This document shows, piece after piece, positions 32,669 through 33,547 of a DNA stretch of 64,000 nucleotides (positions are counted from its first letter, which is position 1; every line of letters starts with the position of its first letter). The notes beneath the pieces are model-generated. The model was not told the DNA's origin. It saw only the letters and a program-made list of their open reading frames with translations, and searched no databases. The translations under genes were made by a program, and so were the position numbers. The DNA lies in IMG/VR virus record IMGVR_UViG_3300032240_000659, positions 32,001 to 96,000 of that record; one strand, written 5' to 3'. The DNA comes from a virus.

Positions 32669-33115
32669 AGAAGAACTTACGTTCTTCTGTTCTTCGCTTT
32701 CGCTCGAACTGTTTTCTTTCTTTTTAATGATTATTAACGCGAAGCGTTTAAGATATTATCTAGATTGTTCAGTCACACTTTGCCCAGACCGGGCAAAAAT
32801 GAACATTATCTGAGTTGCACAATATCACTTAGCGTTACAGCATTACAGAGGCGGTCATCCGGTACCTCGAGCTGTGTCTTTATATGACGGCGGCTTACTA
32901 ACATACGCTAACATGCTAGCAAACGTGGGCTATTAACCCTCTTTTTGCCTTTAACTTTCCTTTAAACAACCAAACCGCGGCAGCTTTGCGATCCTCGTCC
33001 TGTTAAGGATGGTGGTTGAGTACTCTTAGCAGCCAGAGATTCCGTCCCTGCGATCCGAGATCCAGGTGTAGGGCGCACGATATTTGCTTGCGCTTGCTTA
33101 TACTGCTTAAGGAGC
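32669..33115 (-). ncRNA. Candidate large structured non-coding RNA (~445 nt)
   Basis: The longest intergenic gap in the window, GC-richer than its surroundings, with about ten stems, GNRA loops (GAAA, GUAA), strand-specific G-U pairs and a 7-bp loop-to-downstream pseudoknot. Confidence 0.65.
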
Positions 33116-33547
33116 CTATGAATTTAATTTTTTTATATTGGAGCCGTGGACGCGAACTTGAATATGCCCGTTGTAATAGTCGTCGCTTTCAAGAACTTTA
33201 CGAGTAAATTGTTCTCTAGCTTCAACGTATGAGCACTCTGCCTTTGATGTACAGTAAAATAATATCTCTCTTGAGAAGTTATCTTTGCCTAATGTGTCTA
33301 TATCTGCCTGTAGATTAGGGCTTGATCCGTAATATTCTTGCCAATCACTGTCAATCTTACTTCTAATCTTCTTTTTTTTCTTAGTACCGTTTTTAAGTTT
33401 TACTGTTTTATAGGTTGTTTTAGAAAATTTGGCTAGTTTCTTGCCTATATATTTGCGTCCACTGATGAGATTTGTAATGATATACACGAACCCAACGCAA
33501 TCTTCCGGTAAAATTTCGACAATATTGTTTTGATAAGTCCATGACAT
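33116..33547 (-). CDS. Stand-alone GIY-YIG (Seg-like) endonuclease domain (143 aa)
   Basis: GFVYIITNLISGRKYIGKK (GIY-YIG), WQEYYGSS, SYVEAREQF and YYNGHI motifs. No C-terminal DNA-binding domain. Confidence 0.8.
   Translation of the reverse strand: MSWTYQNNIVEILPEDCVGFVYIITNLISGRKYIGKKLAKFSKTTYKTVKLKNGTKKKKKIRSKIDSDWQEYYGSSPNLQADIDTLGKDNFSREILFYCTSKAECSYVEAREQFTRKVLESDDYYNGHIQVRVHGSNIKKLNS

Follow-up and report, generated by a model that had tools for sequence, protein, structure and literature searches.

In a 64,000-nucleotide (nt) stretch of viral DNA (positions 32,001 to 96,000 of the IMG/VR record IMGVR_UViG_3300032240_000659; the whole of this stretch is hereafter called the window), a stand-alone GIY-YIG nuclease gene is directly followed by a large structured non-coding RNA, here called the twin-box RNA or extended Polynucleobacter-1. 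With a probability of roughly 60%, these are two separate functional units, a recombination nuclease and an independent RNA gene, which stand side by side through conserved gene order. The window comes from a 128-kb record, that of an uncultured T4-like phage from fresh water (a lake), and the related complete genomes, which are 345 to 372 kb large, are those of giant freshwater T4-like phages. A sequence-only reading of the window had proposed that nuclease and RNA form a nuclease-RNA system, a proposal borne out only in part. The linkage of the two proved complete within the phage clade, but the nuclease is also found without the RNA and the RNA without the nuclease, the nuclease is exchanged for another one in sister phages, and cargo genes may lie between nuclease and RNA. 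All features of the window described below are located on the minus strand.

Two sets of loci were compiled, an RNA-first set obtained by a pattern scan of IMG/VR (119 loci) and a protein-first set comprising the 80 closest homologues of the nuclease (71–86% identity); the phage records are for the most part fragments. The GIY-YIG gene was found upstream of the RNA and on the same strand in 113 of the 119 RNA-first loci, and in approximately 104 of them it is directly adjacent; two of the six loci without a match show the end of a GIY-YIG gene at a truncated contig edge. Of the protein-first loci, 68 have 700 nt or more of downstream sequence, and each of these carries the RNA, 63 times adjacent to the nuclease gene and five times behind an inserted gene. 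Complete linkage of this kind cannot show a functional tie on its own, because the gene order is fixed in the clade: gp55, gp47 and gp46 are followed by small open reading frames (ORFs), the nuclease, the RNA and, further downstream, a baseplate gene. The cargo genes which can separate nuclease and RNA are 0.7 to 1.9 kb long. The gap between the two is an insertion hot spot for unrelated cargo proteins of 230 to 460 amino acids (loci L023, L032, L039, L042, L082, L102, L125, L130 and L178), among them a radical-SAM/B12-binding protein and proteins with N-termini that by eye resemble GDSL/SGNH hydrolases and gave no family match.

Co-occurrence across homologues, which a nuclease-RNA system had been expected to show, does not extend beyond this clade, and the distribution named beforehand as refuting such a system was encountered from both sides, with nuclease homologues lacking the RNA and RNAs lacking this nuclease. 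The nuclease family is encoded in 516 of 50,697 cultured-phage records, nearly always as a single match and mostly in cyanomyoviruses; its closest homologue in a cultured phage is that of the Methylophilales phage Melnitz (52% identity). No blastn match to the RNA was obtained in any of the 50,697 records, including the 516 with the nuclease, with blastn being less sensitive than a covariance model, and Rfam finds nothing at the nuclease loci of Melnitz, phiN3 and Variovorax phage. The RNA without a nearby GIY-YIG gene was detected at 25 loci of freshwater Burkholderiales (Polynucleobacter, Limnohabitans, Comamonadaceae and Oxalobacteraceae), where it sits in an ORF-free gap of about 1 kb and is oriented divergently from a gene encoding a DUF6641 protein. 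A 188-amino-acid tyrosine recombinase consisting of the catalytic domain only follows the RNA in the Polynucleobacter-type loci; the Limnohabitans-type loci have no adjacent recombinase or nuclease, and DUF6641 is the only constant neighbor. Of 121 Polynucleobacter species genomes, just 13 to 14 contain the RNA; its position varies, and its surroundings are island-like. One Polynucleobacter genome (G001) harbors two copies 18 kb apart (L230:3396-5992 and L231:6287-8299), each with a tyrosine recombinase of 188 or 189 amino acids, the RNA, the divergent DUF6641 gene and then cargo genes, and the boxes of the two copies (the repeats described below) differ, reading AGCGAAA in one and AGAGAAA in the other. 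For DUF6641, no literature was found, a protein atlas returned the same family only, PADLOC and NCBIfam gave no match, and a single-sequence model (pLDDT 36) yielded no usable fold. The family is absent from the phage record.

The nuclease is exchanged in sister phages. Two RNA-first loci without a GIY-YIG gene encode a 172-amino-acid PDDEXK_15 protein between gp46 and the RNA instead, and a protein-first scan revealed approximately 68 syntenic sister loci with a PDDEXK_15 protein of this size in the same slot after gp46. The PDDEXK_15 family corresponds to PHROG 244 ('RusA-like Holliday junction resolvase') and is annotated as resolvase in cultured jumbo-phage records. About 40 of the approximately 68 PDDEXK loci then carry the twin-box RNA; in L239, L246, L263 and L273 to L276, it is the full class-A RNA with the same boxes as in GIY-type phages that stands behind the PDDEXK gene. 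In the remaining loci, about 28 in number (L256 to L295; L257:4040-4700 in the case of L257), an ORF-free, GC-richer structured region of approximately 690 nt is found, which by eye shares only the 3'-terminal module (a GAGCG..AGCGAA stem and a GNRA hairpin) with the twin-box RNA. This L257-type region may represent another class within the same RNA superfamily; neither it nor the twin-box RNA was found by blastn in cultured phages and plasmids. Two complete GIY-type genomes encode no PDDEXK_15 protein, no member of the EndoVII family and no reverse transcriptase, and two complete PDDEXK-type genomes encode no orthologue of the 143-amino-acid GIY-YIG protein, so that none of the four complete genomes checked combines the two nucleases. 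In the phages PA5oct and SCTP-2, the resolvase-like gene is directly followed by protein-coding genes. Most simply, these arrangements are accounted for by non-orthologous displacement, in which one recombination nuclease took the place of another at the end of the gp46/47 module.

The nuclease gene (33116 to 33547, stop codon TAG at 33118 to 33116) encodes a protein of 143 amino acids, which was assigned by Pfam, fold match and invariant residues. The match to the Pfam family SegE_GIY-YIG (PF19835) spans residues 3 to 129 (E 1.6e-32) and therefore leaves no room for a C-terminal DNA-binding domain. A model calculated by AlphaFold with an alignment of 72 relatives as input (pLDDT 93.8) has the catalytic domain of I-TevI as nearest structure (Z 8.4, rmsd 2.6, 82 aligned residues); further structural neighbors are a GIY-YIG 5hmC-specific restriction enzyme, UvrC-N (Z 5.3) and T4 EndoII (Z 5.3). 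The description given in the sequence-only reading, a GIY-YIG domain and nothing else, is thereby borne out. It had also pointed to a very basic insert. Such a lysine-rich segment is indeed present at about residues 40 to 66, but it is not a peculiarity of this copy, being a conserved and nearly invariant beta-hairpin arm of the family among the 72 relatives. V21, Y22, Y33, G35, E109 and N126 are among the invariant residues, and E109 and N126 are, by their position, the putative catalytic Glu and Asn. As judged from model and alignment, the protein is a bare, apparently active GIY-YIG domain.

At four-fold sites, the identity of the GIY-YIG genes to that of the window is 0.37 compared to 0.38 for gp46, both values being saturated, while the protein identity is higher for the nuclease (0.78) than for gp46 (0.66). 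By these measures, the nuclease is old and under strong purifying constraint. Exactly one GIY-YIG gene is encoded in each of the two GIY-type complete genomes checked. Members of this GIY-YIG-only family (e.g. L204:36712-37149; phrog_447) are widely mislabelled as 'NAD synthetase' in records of cyanophages and rhizobiophages, a label at odds with the Pfam match and the fold.

The structured RNA begins at the stop codon of the nuclease gene, as had been noted from the sequence, and comprises about 430 nt plus a short conserved leader (32667 to 33115), as seen from conservation in 117 loci and covariation along the whole length. Its 5' domain (32964 to 33098) matches Rfam family RF01718 (Polynucleobacter-1) over all of its 141 positions (1 to 141) with 106 bits, compared to a gathering score of 37 (E 6e-22). 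The RNA is approximately three times as long as this model, which covers only the first third. Its end was placed at about 32667, some 15 nt short of the next gene, where the conserved blocks of the 117 related loci still reach, and no conserved ORF was found between the stop codon and this position.

The structure was assessed in an alignment of 62 sequences, with 500 shuffles and slid partners as controls. The structure of 69 pairs is 95.7% paired in this alignment compared to 79.8% in the shuffles, and compensatory changes on both sides were observed in 54 of the 69 pairs. The covariation score of 0.486 compares to 0.10 or less in the slid controls and was reached by none of the 500 shuffles. 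For the Polynucleobacter-1 part alone (helices 1 to 8), 19 of 29 pairs had changed on both sides, with 92–100% of cells paired. Two pseudoknots were recovered by mutual-information analysis. The first (helix 12) is formed by the hairpin loop UUAGCG (32906 to 32911) and CGCUAA (32829 to 32834), with compensatory changes in all five of the counted pairs and support for the 3' strand by both mutual information and covariation; the second (helix 13) pairs GUCAU (32884 to 32888) with AUGAC (32854 to 32858), located within the GGUACCGGAUGACCGCC hairpin loop. The RNA ends with a GNRA hairpin, GAAGAAC-GUAA-GUUCUUC (32669 to 32687), in which six of six pairs covary (helix 19), and GNRA and UUCG loops are frequent throughout. 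A candidate base triple connects column 289 of alignment A1 (approximately 32881) to the pair 478-494 in the hairpin at 32783 to 32801: the base in question, itself unpaired, is to 82% the same as one side of the pair and to 82% Watson-Crick complementary to the other, which suggests a triple. The RNA of about 430 nt is real, ornate and doubly pseudoknotted.

The 5' domain is swappable, with other folds replacing the Polynucleobacter-1 part in some relatives in which the 3' core is kept; in loci negative by Rfam, this 3' core is joined to another 5' domain. A short leader motif (CAGU) just upstream stays with the RNA whatever gene precedes it. No tRNA or tmRNA was found, and the sole other Rfam match is a sub-threshold one to cow-rumen-2 (RF02947). 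The central domain (32924 to 32820) has the UUAGC hairpin loop, AGCCGCC and GGAUGACC in common with this family, in the same order, but its score of 22.7 bits (E 0.11) stays below the gathering score of 66. By this score, the RNA is not a member of cow-rumen-2; the latter, known from rumen metagenomes, would be at most a distant relative of one sub-domain.

The variable segment flanked by conserved structure that a guide-like RNA might contain was found as two direct repeats in the 3' core, twin box 1 (CAA-CUC-AGAUAAU, 32805 to 32817) and twin box 2 (CAA-UCU-AGAUAAU, 32755 to 32767), which covary in identity. Each consists of a fixed triplet, CUC in the first and UCU in the second, followed by a 7-mer (CUC-N7 and UCU-N7). 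The 7-mer and mostly the three bases before the triplet vary between genomes, and the two copies within one RNA remain identical; phages have at least ten variants, to which bacteria add four others. The paired columns of the boxes are 98% 'same', with information scores equal to those of the best Watson-Crick pairs. A perfect box pair was found in 98 of the 119 RNA-first and 69 of the 80 protein-first phage loci as well as in 18 of the 25 bacterial loci, compared to 7 of 227 shuffled loci. Among pairs of loci with GIY-YIG proteins 95–100% identical, the boxes differ in 38%, and co-evolution of the GIY-YIG protein with the boxes was rejected on these grounds.

Since ordinary RNA folding does not explain the identity of the boxes, a partner or a copying mechanism reading both boxes alike is implied. 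In cis, exact complements of the boxes between -600 and +1000 are no more common than those of other genomes' boxes, and with G-U pairs allowed there are only matches in a U/G-rich joiner, where control boxes match equally often. In trans, neither the 128-kb record nor the 64-kb window within it showed anything conspicuous (17 matches, 21 in the control), and in the Polynucleobacter genome G001 the search returned just the boxes themselves. For the segments preceding the boxes on the 5' side, no consistent register of a helix between the two was found. Template jumping by a reverse transcriptase was rejected as copying mechanism, no reverse transcriptase being encoded in the record or in the two complete relatives.

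If nuclease and RNA are separate units, the former would be a single-copy, long-resident and structure-specific DNA nuclease closing the gp55-gp47-gp46 recombination module, and we infer that it processes Holliday junctions or branched DNA in the manner of T4 EndoVII or Slx1. An enzyme recognizing the shape of DNA would need neither a sequence-reading domain nor a guide RNA, and the minimal architecture of the protein would thus be explained without the RNA. The latter would be an autonomous gene which keeps its place whichever nuclease precedes it, and its twin boxes may pair with a partner nucleic acid presenting the same short sequence twice. Several points weigh against this separation and the roles given to both parts. 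Adjacency is complete within the clade. That two small nucleases of unrelated families immediately precede the RNA could also be a sign of an RNA working together with 'a nuclease', and a tyrosine recombinase reduced to its catalytic domain comes after the RNA at some of the bacterial loci. The resolvase role is deduced from position and mutual exclusivity, and the structures nearest to the nuclease model are I-TevI, the 5hmC-specific restriction enzyme, UvrC and EndoII, with Slx1 reaching only Z 3.0. For the twin boxes, the searches in cis, in the window, in the phage record and in the Polynucleobacter genome yielded no partner.

Some of these points would be accommodated by a nuclease-RNA module with an exchangeable enzyme, in which a small dimeric DNA enzyme, GIY-YIG or PDDEXK in phages and a minimal tyrosine recombinase in islands, is recruited or directed by the twin-box RNA, whose boxes recognize a DNA site that is either duplicated or two-fold symmetric. 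Such a module, which we regard as rather unlikely, would agree with the constant position of the RNA directly 3' of a small nuclease of either of two unrelated families in phages, with the recombinase adjoining it in Polynucleobacter-type loci, with boxes varying fast yet in step as a specificity determinant would, and with the two RNA copies with different boxes in one bacterial genome. It is difficult to reconcile with a nuclease family that works without the RNA in hundreds of phages, with the same RNA accompanying either nuclease with no sign of co-adaptation, with the cargo genes between nuclease and RNA and with the Limnohabitans-type loci lacking both recombinase and nuclease; the boxes, too, are just 7 to 10 nt long, and neither the phage record nor the Polynucleobacter genome yielded a site complementary to them. 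The more far-reaching proposal that the twin-box RNA is a programmable specificity module of mobile elements (giant phages and genomic islands), aiming a dimeric enzyme that has no DNA-reading domain, is very improbable, although, if true, it would represent a new kind of RNA-directed DNA processing. A role of the RNA as cis-acting 3' untranslated element in processing, stability or termination of the gp55-gp47-gp46-nuclease transcript is unlikely. Its location on the same strand from the stop codon onwards, the lack of a promoter-like site preceding it and the conserved CAGU leader would fit such a role, but 430 nt with two pseudoknots, a candidate triple and swappable domains far exceed its needs, the RNA persists behind unrelated cargo genes, and the arrangement in bacteria is a different one, with the DUF6641 gene pointing away from the RNA and other genes following it downstream.

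Free-standing homing endonucleases of T4-like phages (SegB, SegF and SegG) sit between conserved genes and cut a nearby conserved sequence. The GIY-YIG gene, with I-TevI and SegE as closest fold and family, might accordingly be a Seg-like homing endonuclease located beside its target, the conserved RNA gene, as is known for these free-standing enzymes. This is a slim chance: the protein lacks a DNA-binding domain, every sampled clade member (68 of 68) has the gene and no empty site was seen, the gene is single-copy in complete genomes, and where it is absent a resolvase-like gene fills the slot. Its synonymous sites have diverged like those of the neighboring genes and the protein is more conserved, the opposite of what a recently spreading or decaying selfish gene would show; recent homing was rejected on this synonymous-site divergence. 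The sequence-only reading had further suggested that the RNA primes replication and is processed by the nuclease and gp46/47; the region would then be a replication origin. The region adjoins recombination and replication genes, and T4 origins use R-loop transcripts; nevertheless, this suggestion deserves hardly any credence, as tetraloops of the GNRA and UUCG types, the pseudoknots and G-U pairs specific to one strand are signs of a folded RNA and not of an R-loop, homologues reside in bacterial islands and no GC-skew shift is centered on the region. The separation into a recombination nuclease and an independent RNA gene is retained as the preferred explanation.

Upstream of the nuclease, gp55, gp47 (Mre11-like) and gp46 (Rad50-like) are encoded between 34044 and 37653, in the order described before. 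Pfam matches were obtained for gp47 and gp46; gp55 has no Pfam match, and its name is that given in the sequence-only reading. These three genes have the same order in approximately 150 loci, and the nuclease gene concludes the module. Downstream of the RNA, the next gene (31737 to 32651) encodes a protein of 304 amino acids without family match, which was identified by ORF, family search and comparison to relatives, among which it is variable. Neither a sigma-70-like promoter nor a canonical terminator was found on the RNA strand beside the RNA. A second catalogued orphan RNA, Rfam freshwater-2 (RF02980), is located in the window at 22252 to 22332 (75.9 bits, gathering score 49.9).

Large ornate RNAs of bacteria and phages with unknown function (OLE, GOLLD, ROOL, raiA and HEARO) are rare; one of them, HEARO, proved to be the scaffold of the IscB guide RNA. 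The twin-box RNA, with its modular domains, is abundant among giant freshwater phages and also occurs in genomic islands of lineages that are likely hosts. Treating it apart from the nuclease averts a false claim of an 'RNA-guided GIY-YIG' enzyme, and the nuclease becomes a candidate junction-resolving enzyme for T4-like phages without EndoVII.

The location of the RNA downstream of this gene family is already known from Weinberg et al. 2010 (Genome Biol 11:R31, PMC2864571), in the supplement of which most Polynucleobacter-1 RNAs are described as lying downstream of GOS11034-family genes, GOS11034 as possibly homologous to PSSM2_218 of cyanophage P-SSM2, and the motif as undetected in any sequenced purified phage. 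PSSM2_218 is a 145-amino-acid protein labelled 'NAD synthetase', which aligns with the nuclease of the window (40% identity, BLASTP E 2e-20). The RNA of the window resembles Polynucleobacter-1 as described there in the 5' 135 nt, which match the full model, in the position downstream of a PSSM2_218-like gene and in the association with Polynucleobacter and fresh water. It differs in being about three times longer, with the twin boxes and two pseudoknots in its 3' core; that the gene family encodes a GIY-YIG nuclease was not recognized in the 2010 account. The displacement of the nuclease and the context of bacterial islands are new here.

With I-TevI and the Seg-type homing endonucleases, the 143-amino-acid nuclease shares catalytic fold and motifs, whereas it has neither linker nor DNA-binding domain, and its gene, a single copy found throughout the clade, is subject to strong purifying selection. 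It resembles the phage Holliday-junction resolvases (T4 EndoVII and PDDEXK_15/PHROG 244, with Slx1 as an example of a GIY-YIG enzyme) in holding the slot of the PDDEXK protein of sister phages, while its structural similarity to Slx1 is weak. With the omega-RNA of IscB/TnpB and the bridge RNA of IS110, the arrangement has in common that a small gene for a DNA enzyme adjoins a large structured RNA with short variable segments. Here, however, the nuclease fold is another one and the enzyme family occurs mostly without the RNA; the latter has no terminal guide of 16 to 20 nt and no transposon ends, and its variable boxes are two identical internal 7- to 10-mers with no detectable target.

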